The notes below the pieces were generated by a model. That model was not told the origin of the DNA. It saw nothing but the letters and a program-made list of their open reading frames with translations, and made no database searches. Shown here piece after piece: positions 17,468 through 26,800 of a DNA stretch of 29,248 bases. The stretch spans positions 1 to 29,248 of the forward strand of contig JAAZFB010000489.1 of NCBI GenBank assembly GCA_012511915.1, given 5' to 3'. Each line of letters begins with the position of its first letter. Within the stretch, counting starts at the first letter, position 1. The DNA comes from Clostridiaceae bacterium (GTDB lineage: Bacteria; Bacillota; Clostridia; Monoglobales; Firm-18). The position numbers were made by a program, and so were the translations under genes.

Positions 17468-19879
17468 TTGAGGTACAATTTTAGAGAAACAGAAGAAAAG
17501 TGGCAATCGTTTTGGCAGGAAAACGAAACATTCAAAGCAGAGGATGACTTAACAAAACCTAAGTTTTACGGTTTAGTCGAGTTTCCTTACCCATCTGGGC
17601 AAGGGCTGCACGTTGGACACCCGCGCGGGTATACGGCTATAGATATTATTTCCAGGAAAAAACGTATGGAAGGATATAACGTATTGTTTCCTATGGGTTG
17701 GGATGCCTTTGGATTACCCACTGAAAACTATGCTATTGCTAATAAAATACACCCTGCAATTGTTACCGAAAAGAACATTGGGGTTTTTAAAAGACAGCTT
17801 AAAATGCTCGGTTTTTCTTTTGATTGGTCAAAAGAAATTAATACAACCGATCCAAGGTATTTTAAATGGACACAATGGATTTTTCTGAAATTGTTTGAGA
17901 AAGGGCTTGCGTATAAAACAACTATGCCAATAAACTTTTGCACAGGGTGCAAAGTCGGACTTGCAAATGAAGAAGTGGTTAGTGGTTTGTGCGAGCGTTG
18001 TGGCAGTGAAGTTGTGCAACGTGAAAAAAGTCAATGGATGCTTAAAATCACAGAGTATGCCGAGCGACTTATTGACGACCTTGACCCGCTTGATTATATA
18101 GAAAAAGTAAAGATTCAACAAAAAAACTGGATCGGGCGTTCAGAGGGTTTGCTTGTTGATTTTAAAATTAAAGATACCGATGATTCTATTACCGTTTTTA
18201 CTACCCGACCTGATACGCTGTTCGGTGCGACATATATGGTGCTGTCTCCTGAGCATAAGTTTGTTGAAGATTATAAAAACATGATAAAAAATTATGCAAA
18301 AGTTAAAGAATACAAAACTTTGACAGCAAAGAAAACCGAGTTTGAAAGGACAGAATTGTCAAAAGAAAAAACGGGTGTTGCACTTGAAGGGGTTTATGCA
18401 ATAAACCCGGTAAACGGCAAAGAAATACCTGTATGGATTTCCGATTATGTGCTTGTAACATACGGAACAGGCGCAATAATGGCGGTGCCGGCGCATGATG
18501 AAAGGGATTGGGAGTTTGCGACAAAGTTTAACCTGCCAATTATAGAAGTTGTTGCAAGTGATATTGACGTTACCAAGCAACCTAATTGTAGTGTGGATGA
18601 TGGCGTAATGGTTAACTCCGGGTTTATTACCGGAATGCAGGTTAAACAGGCAATAGAGGCAATGATAGAGGATCTCGAACAAAAAAATATCGGCAAAAGA
18701 AAAACAAATTACAAGCTTCGTGATTGGGTTTTTTCTCGTCAACGCTATTGGGGTGAACCTATTCCGATTGTGCATTGTGAAAAATGCGGTTATGTGGCAT
18801 TATCCGAAGATGAACTGCCTCTTTTGTTACCTGATACCGATAACTTTGAGCCGGGCGATGACGGGGAATCTCCTTTGGCGAAGCAAATAGATTGGGTTAA
18901 CACAACTTGCCCGAAATGCAAAGGCGCTGCACAGCGCGAAACTGATACAATGCCCCAATGGGCGGGCTCGTCGTGGTATTTTTTAAGATATATAGACCCG
19001 AATAATGACAGTTGTATTGCCGATACAGAAAAACTTAAATACTGGCTGCCGGTTGATTGGTATAACGGAGGTATGGAACATACCACATTGCATATGCTGT
19101 ATTCGCGCTTTTGGCACAAGTTTTTATTCGATATAGGTACGGTGCCTACAAAAGAGCCGTATCAAAAGCGTACTTCCCATGGTATGATTTTAGGCGAAAA
19201 CGGCGAAAAAATGAGCAAATCACGTAATAATGTCATAAATCCGGACGATGTTGTACATGAGTTCGGGGCGGATACTTTCAGAACATACGAAATGTTTATC
19301 GGTGCTTTTGATCAAGCAACACCATGGTCAATGCAGGGTGTTAAAGGCTGCTATAACTTTTTAGAACGCGTATGGCGGCTTGGAAATATTCTATCACAAG
19401 ATTATGAATATTCATCCGCATTGGAAAGCACTGTTCATAAAACCATTAAAAAGGTAACCGAAGACATTGACAGGATGAAATTTAATACTGCCATTGCTAC
19501 ACTTATGAGTTTTATAAACGAAGTTATGCGTATTGGCTCTATTACAAAACGCGAGTTAAAAACCTTTTTAATTTTATTAAATCCGTTTGCACCTCACATA
19601 ACTGAAGAACTTTGGCAGTCCTCAGGCTTTGACGGCTATTTGCATCAAAGTGAGTGGCCGGTGTATGATGCCGCAAAAACGTTAGATGATGAAATAGAAA
19701 TAGCAATTCAAGTAAACGGTAAGGTGCGGGACAAAATTATTATTAATGCCGATGCGGACAACGATAGCATTAAAGAACAGGCCCTTGCGTGTCAAAAGGT
19801 CAATGAGTTTATAGGTGATAAACAAATCGTTAAGGTTGTTGTAATCCCTAAACGGCTTGTTAATATAGTTGCAAAATAG
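17468..19879 (+). CDS. leuS: Leucyl-tRNA synthetase
   Basis: [50 protein letters not shown] and KMSKS motifs; TTG start. Confidence 0.98.
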
Positions 19880-19928: not shown

Positions 19929-21479
19929 ATGGCACAGGTGCAACAAGTTACACTTTATGCATTAATACTGTTTTCGGCGTTAATGGTTTTTATTGGCGTG
20001 TCAGCATTTAAAAAAACCACCACGTTAGAAGGATATTTGCTTGGAGGGCGTAGAATAGGTCCGTGGGTTAGTGCCTTTGCATATGGTACAGCTTATTTTT
20101 CAGCTGTTATTTTTATCGGGTATGCCGGTCAAATCGGTTGGAAAGCCGGGTTCGCTTCAATGTGGATAGGTATCGGCAATGCGTTGTTGGGTAGCCTCGC
20201 TGCATGGCTTATACTTGCAAAAAGGACACGTCGCATGACACAAGTTCTTGGCTCAAAGACAATGCCGGAATTTTTTCAAGAACGATTTGACAGCGTTCAC
20301 ATGAAAGTTTACTCTGCCGCAATAATATTTATTTTTTTAGTACCTTATTCTGCTGCAGTATATAAGGGTTTAGGGTCGCTTTTTGTAACAATATTCCCGA
20401 CAGCGAATATTAATGTATGCTTGGCGATTGTAGCAATATTAACTGCTATCTATGTAGCTTTTGGCGGCTATTTTGCTACCGTATACACCAACTTTTTTCA
20501 AGGCATTATAATGATTGTCGGTGTTGTTATTATGGTTATTTACATTGTAGCAAACCCGGCCGTATCCGGTATTGCAAATGGCATGGCAGAAGTGAACCGT
20601 CTTGGGATTTTGGCGGGGAATAATGATTTAACAAGTTTTTTTGGCGGCAGTAATTTTAAGTTTTTGGCATTTAACATAATGCTGACAAGCTTCGGAACAT
20701 GGGGGATGCCCCAAATGATTACCAAATATTATTCTATAAAAGATGAAAAAAGCATCACCCAAGGTGCCGTCATCTCTACTGCTTTTGCTTTGATAATAGG
20801 CGTGGGTGCGTATTTTATAGGCTCACTTGGCAGAATATTTGTACCTGTTGAAAACGGCTTACCCCAGGGTGGCTATGATATGGTTGTCCCGAAGATCTTG
20901 GTACAAACACTTGGGCTTGACGGCAAAATATTATCAACTGTCGTGCTCGCGATATTTATGTTGCTTCTGCTTTCGGCATCAATGTCGACGCTTGCTTCAA
21001 TAGTACTAACATCTAGCAGTGCAGTATCAGTTGACCTTATACCGTCTGTTTATGACAAGTTTAAAGAAAAATATATGATATTTGCAATGAGAATATTCTC
21101 AATTATTTTTGTTGGATTGTCATTTTTATTTGCTACAACGAAAATAACTTTTATCGTTAATTTAATGTCCTTTTCTTGGGGTGTTGTTTCAGGTTGTTTT
21201 ATCGGGCCTTTAATTTGGGGACTGTATTATAAAAAAACCACCAAAACAGGAGCGTGGGCAGGTCTGATAAGTGGGGTTACAGTTGTTGGTATTTTGACGG
21301 CAGTACATACACTTACATCAAACAGCTTCGCTTTTGCTATGAGTATGTCACCGGAATCGGGTGTTGCGGCAATGGCAGTTTCTATGGTCGTAGTGCCTGT
21401 TGTCAGCTTGTTTACTAAGGATGTGCCGGTGGAGAATACAAAAAAAGCTTTCGCGGTTATGGAGGTGCAAGAGGGATAA
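19929..21479 (+). CDS. Sodium:solute symporter (SSS) family transporter
   Basis: About 13 hydrophobic segments, YLLGGRRIGPW, TMPEFFQERF and LLLSASMSTLAS. TAATG overlap with the next gene. Confidence 0.88.
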   Translation: MAQVQQVTLYALILFSALMVFIGVSAFKKTTTLEGYLLGGRRIGPWVSAFAYGTAYFSAVIFIGYAGQIGWKAGFASMWIGIGNALLGSLAAWLILAKRTRRMTQVLGSKTMPEFFQERFDSVHMKVYSAAIIFIFLVPYSAAVYKGLGSLFVTIFPTANINVCLAIVAILTAIYVAFGGYFATVYTNFFQGIIMIVGVVIMVIYIVANPAVSGIANGMAEVNRLGILAGNNDLTSFFGGSNFKFLAFNIMLTSFGTWGMPQMITKYYSIKDEKSITQGAVISTAFALIIGVGAYFIGSLGRIFVPVENGLPQGGYDMVVPKILVQTLGLDGKILSTVVLAIFMLLLLSASMSTLASIVLTSSSAVSVDLIPSVYDKFKEKYMIFAMRIFSIIFVGLSFLFATTKITFIVNLMSFSWGVVSGCFIGPLIWGLYYKKTTKTGAWAGLISGVTVVGILTAVHTLTSNSFAFAMSMSPESGVAAMAVSMVVVPVVSLFTKDVPVENTKKAFAVMEVQEG

Positions 21480-22789
21480 TGTGGAACGAACAAATTGAGA
21501 CAATGTCGCGCGATGATATGCGCACATTGCAACTTGCCAGGCTAAAGCAAACATTAGAAAGAGTGTATAAAAATGTGCCGTTTTATAAAAAACGATTGGA
21601 CGATGTCGGCATTGTTCCTGATAAAGTAAATTCGCTTGAAGATTTACAGCATATACCGTTTACAGTAAAAGATGATTTAAGGGATAATTATCCGTTTGGT
21701 CTTTTTGCAGTGCCTATGAAAGAAATTGTACGAATACATGCCTCGAGCGGTACCACAGGTAAACCGACTACGGTTGGATACACCCGTGCAGACTTGGACA
21801 TGTGGAGTGAGTGTGTTGCCAGAATAGCGACGATGGCAGGGGCAAGCGAAAATGATATTGCACAGATTGCGTTTGGATATGGACTGTTTACCGGGGCGTT
21901 CGGCTTGCATTATGGTCTTGAAAAGATAGGCGCGGCAATCATCCCAATGTCGAGTGGAAATACCGAAAAGCAGGCAATGATAATGCAAGACTATGGCAGT
22001 ACTATTTTGGTAAGTACACCATCTTATGCGCTTTATATGTCTGAGGTAATGCAAGAGCAAGGGATAAAAAAGTCTGATATAAAGCTAAAAATCGGATTGT
22101 TCGGTGCGGAAGGCTCTACAGAGGAAATGAGGAGCCAACTTGAAAACCGGTTCGGCATAATTGCAACAGAAAATTACGGTATGAGTGAGCTTATTGGTCC
22201 CGGTGTTTCGGGAGAGTGTATTCATAAAACAGGTATGCATATTAACGAGGATTATTTTATTCCGGAAATAATCGATTCCCAGACCGGAAAAGTTTTGCCC
22301 TATGGGCAAAAGGGTGAACTTGTTATTACCACCATTTCAAAGCAGGGCATACCACTTCTAAGATATCGCACAAAAGATATAACATATCTGATACCCGAAA
22401 AATGCAAATGCGGCAGAACTACAATTCGCATGGCTAAGATTCAGGGCCGTAGTGATGATATGCTGATTATTAGGGGTGTAAATGTATTCCCTTCACAGGT
22501 TGAAAGTGTATTGTTGGGAATGCCGCATATCAGCCCGCATTATCAGCTTGAAGTCAGCAGGGTGGGTTATTTGGACAATTTAAAAGTGATTGTTGAGCTT
22601 GAGGACGAAAGCTTGTTGGAATCATTTTCGCAATTGGAGCAGCTTGAAAAAAACATCAAGCAAAAACTGCATATTGTACTTGGGCTTGATGCAAAAGTTC
22701 ATCTTGCCGAGCCTAAGACAATAGAGCGCTCCCTTGGCAAAGCAAAACGTGTAATAGATTTGCGAAATAATTCTACAAGTACACTGTAA
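21479..22789 (+). CDS. paaK: Phenylacetate-CoA ligase family protein (paralogue 1)
   Basis: [36 protein letters not shown] and [18 protein letters not shown] motifs. Confidence 0.9.
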   Translation: MWNEQIETMSRDDMRTLQLARLKQTLERVYKNVPFYKKRLDDVGIVPDKVNSLEDLQHIPFTVKDDLRDNYPFGLFAVPMKEIVRIHASSGTTGKPTTVGYTRADLDMWSECVARIATMAGASENDIAQIAFGYGLFTGAFGLHYGLEKIGAAIIPMSSGNTEKQAMIMQDYGSTILVSTPSYALYMSEVMQEQGIKKSDIKLKIGLFGAEGSTEEMRSQLENRFGIIATENYGMSELIGPGVSGECIHKTGMHINEDYFIPEIIDSQTGKVLPYGQKGELVITTISKQGIPLLRYRTKDITYLIPEKCKCGRTTIRMAKIQGRSDDMLIIRGVNVFPSQVESVLLGMPHISPHYQLEVSRVGYLDNLKVIVELEDESLLESFSQLEQLEKNIKQKLHIVLGLDAKVHLAEPKTIERSLGKAKRVIDLRNNSTSTL

Positions 22790-22810
22790 ACACTAAAATT
22801 ATAATATAAT

Positions 22811-22905
22811 GGCGAGGATATTTTTTGCAAGACAAGGCGGAGGATTGAGGCATACTGTATGTATACCGATTGACGACAACGCAGTATTACAGAAAATAGA
22901 CCGCC
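22811..22905 (+). repeat. Inner palindromic module A (CAAGGC...ACAACGC type)
   Basis: Arms GGCGAGGATATTTTTTGCAAGAC / GTATTACAGAAAATAGACCGCC, with an inner ATAC-TGTAT-GTAT hairpin. Confidence 0.65.
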
Positions 22906-22915
22906 AGTATACATG

Positions 22916-23077
22916 ATACTAAATTCAATCAAATATTGCGCAATCTTTCCGGCTGATTTTCCACTGAGCATTGTTATGGAACCGTTTTGAATGCAAAAAG
23001 CATTCAAAAGAACCCATGCCTTGCTCAGCAAAAAATCATCTTGCAAATATAACACTATATTTGATTGAATTTAGTAT
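22916..23077 (-). mobile_element. Inner MITE-like module B with perfect 21-bp TIR
   Basis: ATACTAAATTCAATCAAATAT (22916-22936) is the exact reverse complement of 23057-23077. Nested stems at 22954-22970/23022-23038 and TTTTGAATGC-AAAAA-GCATTCAAAA (22985-23009). Confidence 0.8.
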
Positions 23078-23116
23078 GAGATTTAGTGTTGACAGTGTAC
23101 TAGTCCAAAATAGAAA

Positions 23117-23154
23117 TAATACGATTTCTTATTAAAATACGAGGATTAGTATTA
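23117..23154. repeat. Mini palindrome of the TAATACTAATCCTC family
   Basis: The right arm GAGGATTAGTATTA is the exact reverse complement of 1214-1227. The left arm TAATACGATTTCTT matches at 10/14. Confidence 0.6.
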
Positions 23155-23180
23155 ATAGTACAGAAAGGTTGTATGCGTAA

Positions 23181-24923
23181 ATGAAAAAACTTATGCTTGG
23201 TAATGCAGCTGTTGCAAGGGGAGCTTATGAGGCGGGGGTAAGTGTTGTATCATCATATCCCGGAACACCCAGCACAGAAATAACACAGGAAATAGCCAAG
23301 TTTGATGAAATAGATTCAGAATGGGCACCGAATGAAAAGGTTGCTTTGGAAGTTGCAATAGGCGCCTCATTTGCAGGCGCAAGGGCTATGTCATGTATGA
23401 AGCATGTGGGACTTAATGTAGCTGCAGATCCGCTTTTTACAGTTTCCTACACAGGAGTAAGCGGAGGTCTGGTCATTTGTGTTGCCGATGACCAAGGCAT
23501 ACACAGCAGTCAGAATGAACAGGACAGTCGGCTTATGGCTATTGCGTCAAAGGTCCCGATGCTCGAACCGGCCGATAGTGCAGAATGTAAGCATTATGTA
23601 AAGACTGCTTTTGAGCTCAGTGAAAAATACGATACGCCGATATTAATTCGTTTGTCCACAAGGGTATCCCATTCACAAAGTCTTGTACAATTAAGCGAGA
23701 GGCAAGATATCAGTTTAAGAGAATATGCTAAAGATACTGCAAAACGTGTTATGATGCCGGCAATGGCAATATCACGTCATAAATATGTCGAACGACGGCT
23801 TGACGATATGAGGGATTTTGCAGAGCAATGCGAGTTTAACACAATCGAGAAAAAAAGTAAAAAAATCGGTGTAATAACAGCCGGAATTGCATATCAATAT
23901 GCTAAAGAAGCATTTCCTGAGGCATCATTTTTAAAACTCGGCTTAATAAATCCTCTGCCGGAAAAATTAATTAAGGATTTTGCATCGCAAGTTGAGCAGC
24001 TTTATGTTATAGAAGAACTGGAGCCGGTAATTGAAAATCACTGTAAAGCGATTGGACTTAACATACATGGGAAAGACATTTTACCAAGGACTGGTGAATA
24101 TAATTCCGGTATGATTAGGAAAGCGGTTTTTGGCGAACAAATCGAAACACACAATATCGAGGAAGATATACCCGGCAGACCGCCGGTTATGTGTGTCGGC
24201 TGTCCGCATAGAGGTGTATTTTATCTGTTGAAAAAGCTGCGTTTTATTGTTAGCGGCGATATCGGTTGTTATACGCTAGGGGCGTTGGCACCGCTTAACA
24301 GTATGGATTTATGCGTTTGTATGGGTGCGAGTATAGGTATGGCGCATGGCATTGAAAAGGCAAGAGGAGATAGTTTTCGGAAAAAGACTGTTGCGGTTAT
24401 AGGCGATTCGACCTTCATTCATAGCGGCATCACCGGACTTATAGATATAGTATATAACAAAGGCAACAGCACAGTTATTATTCTTGACAATTCGATAACT
24501 GCAATGACGGGCCATCAGGATAATCCGGCTACAGGCTATACTATTAAATCAGAACCTACAAAATCGTTGGATTTGGTTGGGCTTTGTAAAGCTATAGGGG
24601 TTAATAGAGTTACGATTGCCGACCCGTTCGACCTTTCGGGATTTGAAAAGATTTTAAAAGAAGAAACACAAGCCGATGAGCCCTCTGTTATTATTGCACG
24701 GCGACCATGCGCTTTGTTAAAAGGTGTCCGCTACCCGGGTGCTCTCAGAATAAATGAAAACTGCGTAACCTGTAAGAGCTGTTTAGGGTTGGGTTGCCCT
24801 GCCATTTCGGTTAAAGACAGTAAGGTAACCATAGATGCCACTCAATGTGTTGGTTGCGGGCTTTGCCTTAAAGTATGCAAATTCAATGCAATCGGAGGTA
24901 TAAAAGATGAATCAATCAACTAA
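23181..24923 (+). CDS. iorA: Indolepyruvate:ferredoxin oxidoreductase alpha subunit
   Basis: SSYPGTPSTEI, MKHVGLNVAAD, HSSQNEQDSR, MCVGCPHR, SGDIGCYTLG, GDSTFIHSG, TAMTGHQ and two C-terminal CxxCxxC [4Fe-4S] motifs. Confidence 0.95.
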   Translation: MKKLMLGNAAVARGAYEAGVSVVSSYPGTPSTEITQEIAKFDEIDSEWAPNEKVALEVAIGASFAGARAMSCMKHVGLNVAADPLFTVSYTGVSGGLVICVADDQGIHSSQNEQDSRLMAIASKVPMLEPADSAECKHYVKTAFELSEKYDTPILIRLSTRVSHSQSLVQLSERQDISLREYAKDTAKRVMMPAMAISRHKYVERRLDDMRDFAEQCEFNTIEKKSKKIGVITAGIAYQYAKEAFPEASFLKLGLINPLPEKLIKDFASQVEQLYVIEELEPVIENHCKAIGLNIHGKDILPRTGEYNSGMIRKAVFGEQIETHNIEEDIPGRPPVMCVGCPHRGVFYLLKKLRFIVSGDIGCYTLGALAPLNSMDLCVCMGASIGMAHGIEKARGDSFRKKTVAVIGDSTFIHSGITGLIDIVYNKGNSTVIILDNSITAMTGHQDNPATGYTIKSEPTKSLDLVGLCKAIGVNRVTIADPFDLSGFEKILKEETQADEPSVIIARRPCALLKGVRYPGALRINENCVTCKSCLGLGCPAISVKDSKVTIDATQCVGCGLCLKVCKFNAIGGIKDESIN

Positions 24924-25491
24924 TATAATGATTGTAGGCGTTGGCGGGCAAGGAACGCTGCTTGCAAGCAGAATACTTGGCAATGTTGCAATAAACAGCG
25001 GTTATGATGTTAAAGTGTCCGAGGTACACGGTATGTCCCAACGAGGCGGGAGTGTTGTTACATACGTAAAATACGGTAAAGAGGTATTTTCACCTGTTAT
25101 TTCCGAGGGAGAAGCGGATATAATCTTAGCATTCGAACAGCTTGAAGCATACAGATATTTTAAATTTCTTAAAAATAACGGCGTAATGTTAGTAAATATT
25201 CAAAAAATAGACCCAATGCCGGTTATTACAGGTGCCGCGAGGTACCCGGATGAAATTATAAATAAATTAAAAAACACCGGTGCGGATATAACGGAAGTGG
25301 ATGCACTCCAAGCGGCAAACAAGGCGGGGAATGCAAAGACAGCAAATGTTGTGTTAATAGGACTCTTGGCAAGCAAGACAAATATACCAAAAGGTGTTTG
25401 GGAAAATGCGATACAGCAGACAGTGCCACAAAATTTCTTGGATGTAAACAAAAAAGCGTTTGAAATTGGGTATAATGGAGGGGTAGAGTAG
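24907..25491 (+). CDS. iorB: Indolepyruvate:ferredoxin oxidoreductase beta subunit
   Basis: [11 protein letters not shown] and [13 protein letters not shown] motifs; overlaps iorA. Confidence 0.95.
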
Positions 25492-25492
25492 T

Positions 25493-26800
25493 GTGAAAGG
25501 TTTTTGGGATCAAAAGAGCGAATGTATGTCGCGTGAGCAAATACATGATTTACAGTCAAAAAAACTTGCAAAGCTGATTAAACGAGTGTATACCAATGTG
25601 CCTTATTACAGGGATAAAATGCAAGAAAAAGGTGTGCTCCCGGAGGATATAAAAACAATGGAGGACATTGAAAAACTCCCCTTTACAACAAAGCAGGACT
25701 TGCGCGAAACGTATCCTTTTGGCATGTTTGCAACGCCTATGGAGGAAATAGTAAGAGTGCATGCCTCCAGCGGAACGACAGGTAAACAAACTGTTGTAGG
25801 CTATACACAAAACGATATTGCCACATGGTCAGAACTTATGGCAAGGTGTTTTACAATGGCGGGGGCAGATCGCTCGTCTATTTTTCAGGTTTCTTACGGA
25901 TATGGGCTTTTTACAGGCGGTTTAGGTGCGCATTACGGTGCAGAGCGAATTGGTGCTGCAACAGTGCCTACCTCGTCCGGCAATACCCAGCGTCAAATTA
26001 ACATTATGAAGGATTTCGGCGTTACTGTTTTGTGCTGCACCCCATCATATGCTTTGTATTTAGCTGAGGCAATAGAGGAGGCAGGACTTTCACTTGACGA
26101 TTTTAAATTGACTGCAGGCATTTTCGGGGCGGAGCCTTGGACGGAAAATATGCGTGGAGAAATTGAGAAAAACTTGAGAATTAAGGCGTTTGATATATAT
26201 GGGCTAAGCGAAGTTATGGGACCCGGTGTGTCAATGGATTGCCAGTATAAAAACGGACTGCATATTTGGGAAGACCATTTCTATCCCGAAATTATTAATA
26301 GCCAAACTTGTGAAGTTTTGCCGGCAAATACGGATGGTGAACTGGTTTTTACTACTCTGACAAAAGAGGGCTTCCCACTTATCAGATATAGAACAAGAGA
26401 TGTCTCATCGATAAGTTATGAAAAATGTGCATGTGGCAGAACTATGGCACGAATGTCAAAACCAAGCGGAAGAACAGATGATATGCTTATCATTCGGGGT
26501 GTAAATGTGTTCCCGTCACAAATTGAAAGTGTATTGCTTGATGTGGGCGAAACTTCGCCGCATTATATGATAATAGTTGACAGGGTAGGTACGCTTGATA
26601 CGCTTGAAGTGCAAGTCGAGCTTACTGCGGATATGCTCTCTGATGAGGTGAAAAAACTTGAGGACACCGAAAATAAAATAAGAAAAGGCATAGAGACCAC
26701 TCTTGGATTGTCGGCAAAAATTACATTAGTTGAATCAAAAACAATAATGCGAAGTGAGGGCAAAGCAAAAAGAGTTATAGATAAACGAAAATTTAAATAA
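25493..26800 (+). CDS. paaK: Phenylacetate-CoA ligase family protein (paralogue 2)
   Basis: [30 protein letters not shown] and [18 protein letters not shown] motifs; GTG start. Confidence 0.9.

Follow-up and report, generated by a model that had tools for sequence, protein, structure and literature searches.

The window analysed here comprises positions 1–29,248 of the forward strand of contig JAAZFB010000489.1 from a Clostridiaceae bacterium (GCA_012511915.1). Its own genome assembly, designated G000, amounts to 2.63 Mb in 630 contigs, and contigs cited below without a genome prefix (C99, C106 and so on) belong to it. Between paaK, a gene for a PaaK-family phenylacetate-CoA ligase, and iorA, the gene for indolepyruvate ferredoxin oxidoreductase alpha, the window carries a block of nested inverted repeats. 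We interpret positions 22,780–23,099 as a MITE (miniature inverted-repeat transposable element) of about 160 bp lying in the paaK–iorA spacer, with a second MITE of 160 bp inserted inside it, and give this reading a probability of roughly 0.85. We infer that the outer element came first: a non-autonomous hairpin transposon of about 160 bp would have entered a short spacer, and the second MITE (22,917–23,076) would later have landed in a TGA within it, in the opposite orientation. Both are diverged members of one superfamily of elements of about 160 nt, in which the core is conserved, the hairpin is long and imperfect, and the termini differ. Carrying no genes of their own, they would depend for movement on a DDE transposase supplied in trans, one that makes a 3-bp staggered cut at T-N-A, preferably in the context Y-TNA-R. 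By analogy this enzyme, which is absent from the assembly, may be of the IS5/PIF-Harbinger type.

Two nested elements

A repeat finder recovered outer arms at 22,775–22,797 and 23,082–23,104 (23 nt, 91% complementary, 21 of 23 positions) and inner arms at 22,905–22,948 and 23,045–23,088, the latter built around a perfect 21-nt repeat (22,916–22,936 and 23,057–23,077). It also found a cross pairing of 34 nt at 71% between 22,805–22,838 and 23,018–23,051. These repeats reproduce those listed in an earlier note on the same DNA, which had counted 19 of 20 matches in the outer pair. That note had also proposed a folding check. As a single strand, a 341-nt stretch folds far better than shuffled sequences on both strands (z −8.9 and −11.7).

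The same note had seen three levels of nesting, namely outer repeats enclosing a module A (22,811–22,905) and a module B, and had proposed counting copies and looking for empty sites. We searched the window's own genome with positions 22,770–23,110 and obtained 85 matches, which reduce the three levels to two elements. In C99:1892–2057 and C106:2167–2331, query positions 6–147 and 307–334 are contiguous at 96–98% identity and are joined by a single TGA. Where the window has TGA, insert and TGA, one TGA stands there (...ACATGAGATT...), so that C99 and C106 each give an exact empty site of the inner element. The two target duplications in the window lie at 22,914–22,916 and 23,077–23,079. They enclose the inner element itself (22,917–23,076), which corresponds to module B, has the ends TACTAAATTCAATCAAATAT and its inverse (TAC...GTA) and carries its conserved core on the minus strand. 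A covariance model scores it at 154 bits. The joint from 22,912 to 23,076, skipping 163 bp, is also carried by contigs from a digester, a compost and a landfill metagenome, all independent of one another. These contigs are the uninterrupted outer form, and they are too short to bridge the whole nest.

The outer element is about 160 bp long and spans 22,780–23,099 including its insert. Its left part, TACACTGT... (22,780–22,916), has the conserved core on the plus strand and contains module A, as defined by the contiguous copies on C99 and C106 and by nhmmer and covariance-model matches. Its right end, ...ACAGTGTA, occupies 23,080–23,099, also on the plus strand. On the right it is flanked by CTAG (23,100–23,103), which represents a duplication of 4 bp or else a TA inside CTAG, and on the left by a degenerate CAAG (22,776–22,779), where most other copies have CTAG. 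The outer family includes at least four copies of one subfamily and five copies of a second that is about 80% identical. In an alignment of nine copies with their flanks, the ends are TACWCTGTCAAC and its inverse, flanked by CTAG. C106 and C196 have CTAG at either end; in further copies it stands at the right, and the left flank is degenerate or truncated at the end of a contig.

Module A is contiguous with the outer ends in every other copy and never occurs apart from them; it is the interior of the outer element. This bears on a suggestion of the earlier note, modular assembly in the manner of BOX elements, by which independent modules A and B would have been joined by recombination within a frame of outer repeats. 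Such an origin would explain the several inverted-repeat levels in the window, and elsewhere in this genome a 43-bp palindrome and an 86-bp element have indeed been amplified as a 129-bp composite. Yet module A is never seen without the outer ends, a target duplication marks both edges of module B, whose exact empty site is known, and the composite of outer element and B is found only once in the genome, in the window. We consider BOX-like assembly very improbable. The duplication and the empty site of the inner unit point to insertion and not to module shuffling, so that the other origin offered in the note, a composite of non-autonomous elements with terminal inverted repeats built by successive insertion, is borne out for two levels.

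The 43-bp palindrome (36 full copies) and the 86-bp element (ATACTATTTTCC...GGAATAGTAT) belong to families with TACTA-type ends. Their two-unit compound of 129 bp has itself been amplified to about 25 copies, for example at C541:2750–2878, C612:7552–7677 and C265:3191–3317.

The inner element family

A census of the 21-nt terminal repeat in the genome returned 10 inverted pairs spanning 162 bp, 31 spanning 47–48 bp and 51 solo or contig-edge copies, about 20 of which are 160-bp copies cut at contig ends. The 10 complete internal copies are 95–97% identical. Together with a 46-bp deletion derivative, the 160-bp form makes up 41 complete copies. In 36 of these an identical 3-bp TNA stands on both sides (TAA in 20, TTA in 12, TGA in 3 and TCA in 1), while the next three bases outward, taken as a control, match in none of the 41. 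Directly outside TAC...GTA there is thus T-N-A on either side, with a variable but matching middle base, and a flank logo adds Y at −4 and R at +4, giving the context Y-TNA-R. Since the TNA triplets flank TAC...GTA identically, the inner element is a unit of 160 bp with a perfect 21-nt terminal inverted repeat and a 3-bp target duplication. The TA duplication of IS630/Tc1-mariner elements, at which the earlier note had hinted, does not fit the inner element: the duplication is TNA, its middle base varies, and no DDE_3 transposase was found in the assembly.

What was found at this locus includes nearly every defining feature of a MITE: small non-coding units, terminal inverted repeats, a target duplication of fixed length in the inner family, and multiple dispersed copies with empty sites. 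A cognate autonomous element with the same termini was not found, and in the outer family the CTAG flanks are ambiguous as to the duplication. We therefore regard the elements as MITEs in the usual bacterial sense (PMC10969869).

The 46-bp form consists of two 20-nt terminal repeats around a 6-nt centre in either orientation. It is present in about 31 copies, for example at C391:1141–1186, C570:1267–1312 and C256:9920–9965. A deletion between the CAAATAT repeats, of which the 160-bp form has two, explains its origin. Because most copies have TNA duplications of their own, this form has moved; unusually small as it is, it appears to have been mobilised.

In 5 of the 41 complete copies (12%, compared with 2% of random TNA sites) an open frame of 80 or more codons ends in a stop codon that is also the TNA duplication, and the stop is restored upon insertion; examples are C265:2127, C484:5 and C610:6084. 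The family also marks the assembly. More than 20 contigs (C107, C125, C151, C203, C312, C330, C363, C369, C469, C471, C481, C532, C597 and others) end inside a copy of the inner element, which makes these repeats a direct cause of part of the fragmentation.

Outside the genome, the exact 20-mer terminus gave nine chance-like single matches among the GTDB representatives (185,579 species genomes). In public metagenomes nearly all matches came from one assembly and were short forms. The exact terminus is essentially confined to the organism of the window, which is itself present in anaerobic digester, compost, landfill and bioreactor metagenomes.

A common core in both elements

A motif scan, confirmed by alignment, showed that the genome has many repeat families, each about 160 bp long, that differ in their termini and agree in their interior, which consists of a T-run, CAGGCAAGGCGGAAGG, a short hairpin and then AACGCAGYATGRYGGAAAA. 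In the window, the strand bearing this core is the plus strand of the outer element and the minus strand of the inner one. Judged by their alignment, the two elements are distant homologues in opposite orientation. The cross pairing between 22,805–22,838 and 23,018–23,051 joins the same alignment columns of two inverted homologues. The pairing between the ends of A and B that the earlier note had seen is a by-product of this arrangement and not a third structural level.

An nhmmer profile search of the genome retrieved 60 members, 26 of them near full length, and 58 of the 60 are intergenic. In tandem gene contexts they show no preferred orientation relative to neighbouring genes (5 sense, 9 antisense). 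A partial member lies in the window itself at 1,278–1,360 on the minus strand (profile positions 6–88), between two open reading frames near the window start.

A covariance model built from the member alignment was then run against 22 genomes from 13 genera of the taxonomic family. Matches were obtained in 10 of the genomes and 9 of the genera, most of them in G007 (35) and G009 (33), with 9 in G004 and 8 in G010. Subfamilies in the relatives share the core and end in AGACTTCTTGCAAAACC, GAGCCTGTCTAAAATC, ATACTAATCGTTGATG and other termini with ANT or TNA flanks: ANT flanks mark one of them, and another ends in GAGCC and has duplicated TTA.

Core-only relatives that lack terminal repeats occur at G001:C19:16569–16670, G005:C79:2148–2256, G003:C108:5527–5680 and around G000:C612:7400–7530. 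They adjoin sequence resembling the 3′ end of a transfer RNA (tRNA; GGTTCAACTC...). An origin from tRNA or transfer-messenger RNA was considered and rejected, as ARAGORN found neither in the core-only loci. A link to the c-di-GMP-I riboswitch was likewise dropped: one core-only relative from G003 matched c-di-GMP-I-UAU below threshold (E 0.022), and neither the G001 locus, compared at that same cut-off, nor any of 20 MITE copies gave such a match. In G010, the terminal repeat of one subfamily, GAGCCTGTCTAAAATCTC, occurs in many solo copies, with TTA, TAA or CAA in front and unique sequence behind (for example at C15:2419, C166:6257, C268:2425, C14:2334 and C138:3614 of that genome). These are one-ended remnants and not the ends of an insertion sequence (IS).

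A putative mobilising enzyme

Target duplications of a constant 3 bp, at a palindromic Y-TNA-R site, indicate cut-and-paste movement by a DDE transposase acting in trans. A duplication of this length at TWA, C|TNA|G or ANT is a signature of the PIF-Harbinger/IS5 superfamily (PMC4482050). By this analogy the partner enzyme could be of the IS5 type (IS5/PIF-Harbinger), an assignment to which we give somewhat less than even odds: the TNA and ANT duplications of 3 bp are present, and a matching transposase and matching termini were not found. A partner IS would be recognised by ends beginning TACTAAATTCAATC... or TACACTGTCAAC....

The assembly was searched with the Pfam models DDE_Tnp_1, DDE_Tnp_4, DDE_3, DDE_Tnp_1_2 and DUF4096, and all contigs carrying transposases were inspected together with the ends of these elements. 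DDE_3 (PF13358) and DDE_Tnp_4 (PF13359) had no match in the assembly. Among the relatives' terminal repeats, in G007, G009, G010 and the family as a whole, there were only short forms or solo ends and no IS. One IS5-family remnant is present at C43:1792–2482. It is 691 bp long, has perfect 19-nt terminal repeats (TAGGGTATCCTTAAAAACC) and retains only the C-terminal DDE_Tnp_1_2 part. Its repeat sequence also adjoins some of the 43-bp palindromes elsewhere in the genome.

Several observations weigh against two transposase-driven MITEs. The census contained no terminal-repeat pair enclosing more than 170 bp in the assembly. An autonomous partner is absent from the assembly, from the GTDB representatives and from public metagenomes, which is weak evidence of absence because an assembly in 630 contigs could easily miss a repeated IS. 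The transposases that are present (IS4, ISAs1, IS1380, two IS1634, an IS1182-like fragment and the IS5 remnant) all have unrelated ends; the comparison of genomic transposases with the terminal repeats, which the earlier note had recommended, hence yielded no counterpart. IS5-family elements have G-rich ends, and the elements in the window end in TAC. The CTAG of the outer family is constant and palindromic, so that a 4-bp duplication, a TA within CTAG and an extended repeat look the same. Finally, across a set of 28 diverse members conservation is higher in the core than in the terminal helix (mean majority fraction 0.71 versus 0.61), the reverse of what simple recognition by a transposase would predict.

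The CTAG flanks leave some room for a different enzyme for the outer element. With C-TA-G on both sides, outer copies would suit an IS630/Tc1-mariner-type transposase that duplicates the TA within a CTAG target. This is unlikely, given that the assembly has no DDE_3 transposase, that the outer element is homologous to families with clear 3-bp TNA duplications, and that an IS5-type duplication of 4 bp fits CTAG equally well.

A conserved fold

The unusual conservation of the core extends to its structure. RNAalifold, applied to 24 members that represent several subfamilies and include one further genus, predicted one long imperfect hairpin with compensatory double changes in 34 of 45 pairs. In this structure 89.9% of alignment cells are paired, compared with 70.2% in shuffled alignments (none of 500 reached the observed value) and 36–46% when partners were slid by one to three columns. 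Covariation is as good in the internal helices as in the terminal helix, and 17 sequences from other genera, left out when the structure was derived, are 92% paired in it. In 25 of 26 copies the core strand has the better fold of the two strands, by 15 kcal/mol on average, of which 4–10 kcal/mol is compositional as judged from shuffled means. At one position a U-G pair is kept in 21 of the 24 sequences. G-U outnumbers A-C by 75 to 18, a biased and circular count in that the structure was predicted on that strand. When the window region and 20 family members were compared with Rfam, only sub-threshold matches to microRNA precursors appeared, as is typical of long hairpins.

These regularities suggest an addition to the MITE reading that is compatible with it: the elements may be mobile modules of structured RNA or single-stranded DNA, in which the core hairpin is selected for a function of the folded strand and the termini serve as interchangeable adaptors. 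That function could lie in stabilising or processing transcripts, in a small RNA, or in a folded transposition intermediate. In its favour are a core more conserved than the termini across at least nine genera, compensatory changes that reach beyond the terminal repeats into the internal helices, the retained U-G pair, the better-folding core strand and the excess of G-U. Part of the strand asymmetry is compositional, however, and the G-U count is circular. Moreover, the copies show no orientation bias with respect to genes and match no Rfam family, promoter and terminator scans stayed at background level, and the locus was found in no RNA run. We regard this extension as doubtful.

A related and similarly tentative proposal, which we hold at well under even odds, is that the families form an undescribed superfamily of an uncultured anaerobic-digester lineage. 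In it, a core of about 80 nt and a 160-nt hairpin geometry would have been kept by compensatory change in at least nine genera, while terminal repeats and duplication type (TNA, ANT, CTAG) were exchanged. If true, selection would act on a folded single strand, whether RNA or a DNA intermediate, and the elements would be a mobile module swapping transposase adaptors and not simple deletion derivatives of one IS.

The hairpin shape and the strand-asymmetric fold also call to mind palindromes of the REP/REPIN kind, whose movement depends on a single-strand transposase of the Y1 group (RAYT or IS200-type). A Y1 transposase gene is present at C556, and on C601 about 170 bp separate a Y1 fragment from a copy of the inner family. 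That fragment (C601:19320–19484, minus strand) contains an internal stop; that such decaying mobile DNA lies so close to the copy at 19652–19811 is probably chance. Unrelated G+C-rich hairpins flank the C556 gene, which encodes a typical IS200 TnpA. Furthermore, the inner family has consistent 3-bp target duplications, which Y1 enzymes are not known to make. Movement by such an enzyme is accordingly very unlikely.

The paaK–iorA junction

Returning to two nested MITEs, we turn to the genes on either side, whose names in the earlier note agree with NCBIfam matches. The PaaK-family ligase gene occupies 21,479–22,789 on the plus strand (TIGR02155, E 6e-168). On the same strand, iorA (23,181–24,923; TIGR03336, E 4.5e-220) is followed by iorB and a second paaK. 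The order in 19,929–26,800 (sodium/solute symporter, paaK-like, iorA, iorB, second paaK-like) is syntenic in G001, and this region is an aromatic amino-acid fermentation cluster. The sole open reading frame across the elements (118 aa, minus strand, 22,699–23,055) has no NCBIfam match, consistent with the earlier observation that the element contains no transposase.

The spacer between paaK and iorA measures 416 nt in the window. It is 33 nt long in G001, a genome of the same genus, and 24 nt in G007, which belongs to another genus of the family. With so little space, the corresponding locus in these relatives is empty of both elements. The exact empty site for the outer element is not recoverable from G001, where the spacer is too diverged (about 79% identity).

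From the outer element to the ribosome-binding region of iorA about 50 nt remain. Here, by eye only, we noted a probable degenerate mini-element of 33 bp, TACGATTTC...GAGGATTAGTA, at 23,120–23,152 with the flanks TAA and TTA and no assigned strand. Its right end, GAGGATTAGTA, matches the right terminus of the subfamily found on C432 and C589, and BLAST gave only short matches. This mini-element probably accounts for most of the remaining extra spacer.

The insertions affect the gene upstream as well. The TIGR02155 model stops at residue 429 of the 436 of the window PaaK, whose last seven codons (NNSTSTL) and stop codon (22,787–22,789) lie in and next to the left end of the outer element. PaaK orthologues in G001 and G007 terminate in ...KAKRVIDLR, and the window PaaK continues through NNSTSTL to a stop inside the outer left repeat. 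In total, the insertions lengthened the spacer from about 30 to 416 nt and PaaK by seven residues. Any effect on expression of paaK and iorA is a matter of prediction: the very stable hairpin modelled in any read-through transcript could alter the coupling of these aromatic amino-acid catabolism genes.

A strong predicted fold in an operon spacer might also be expected of a single-copy, conserved cis-regulatory RNA, such as a riboswitch or attenuator of the paaK–ior operon, and an assembly artefact could in principle create nested repeats. We give both together almost no weight. The region is absent at the orthologous locus of the relatives, is multi-copy in the genome and has no Rfam match, and the same sequences occur in independent metagenomes. 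The earlier note had itself set the prospect of a single-copy structured RNA conserved in relatives against its reading; the many genomic copies and the relatives without the region show the opposite pattern.

Comparison with known systems

The locus is a clean bacterial case of a MITE within a MITE, at a gene junction that is kept tight in relatives. Its repeats also define a lineage-wide superfamily in which the core is better conserved than the transposase-binding ends, raising the question of what maintains MITE interiors.

We compared the elements with the Correia elements of Neisseria, RUP of S. pneumoniae, ERIC, bcr1 of the B. cereus group and QMITE2 of Coxiella (PMC10969869). Like these bacterial MITEs, they are 100–200 bp long, have no open reading frame, carry terminal inverted repeats and a short duplication, occupy AT-rich intergenic sites in dozens of copies and are predicted to give a stable hairpin transcript over the whole element. 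They differ in their unrelated sequence, in combining a common core with different terminal repeats and in having no known partner IS. The named bacterial families have TA or longer duplications, whereas the duplication here is a 3-bp TNA.

In that respect they resemble Tourist-like MITEs and the PIF-Harbinger/IS5 (PHIS) superfamily, whose targets are TWA in PIF/Harbinger, C|TNA|G in NuwaII and ANT in IS5 (PMC4482050); here, T-N-A lies in a palindromic Y-TNA-R context. It is the duplication type that links them to this group, from which they differ in their TAC ends and in the lack of a transposase with matching ends.

With BOX of Streptococcus pneumoniae they have in common short intergenic repeats, hairpin potential and an apparent modularity. 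BOX consists of boxA, boxB and boxC modules in variable number and is not known to have target duplications. In the window, unlike in BOX, each unit is a complete element with terminal inverted repeats, module A is dependent on the outer ends, and the inner element has a duplication of its own.

A parallel to the nesting itself comes from plants: Jiang and Wessler reportedly described nested MITE insertions in maize and rice in 2001. As there, a MITE lies within a MITE of a related family, and uninterrupted copies together with the target duplication allow it to be recognised. In the window the host is bacterial, the site is an operon spacer and the composite has not been amplified. Nesting of this kind is fairly ordinary; what goes beyond the ordinary is the conserved, covarying interior with termini exchanged across many genera.

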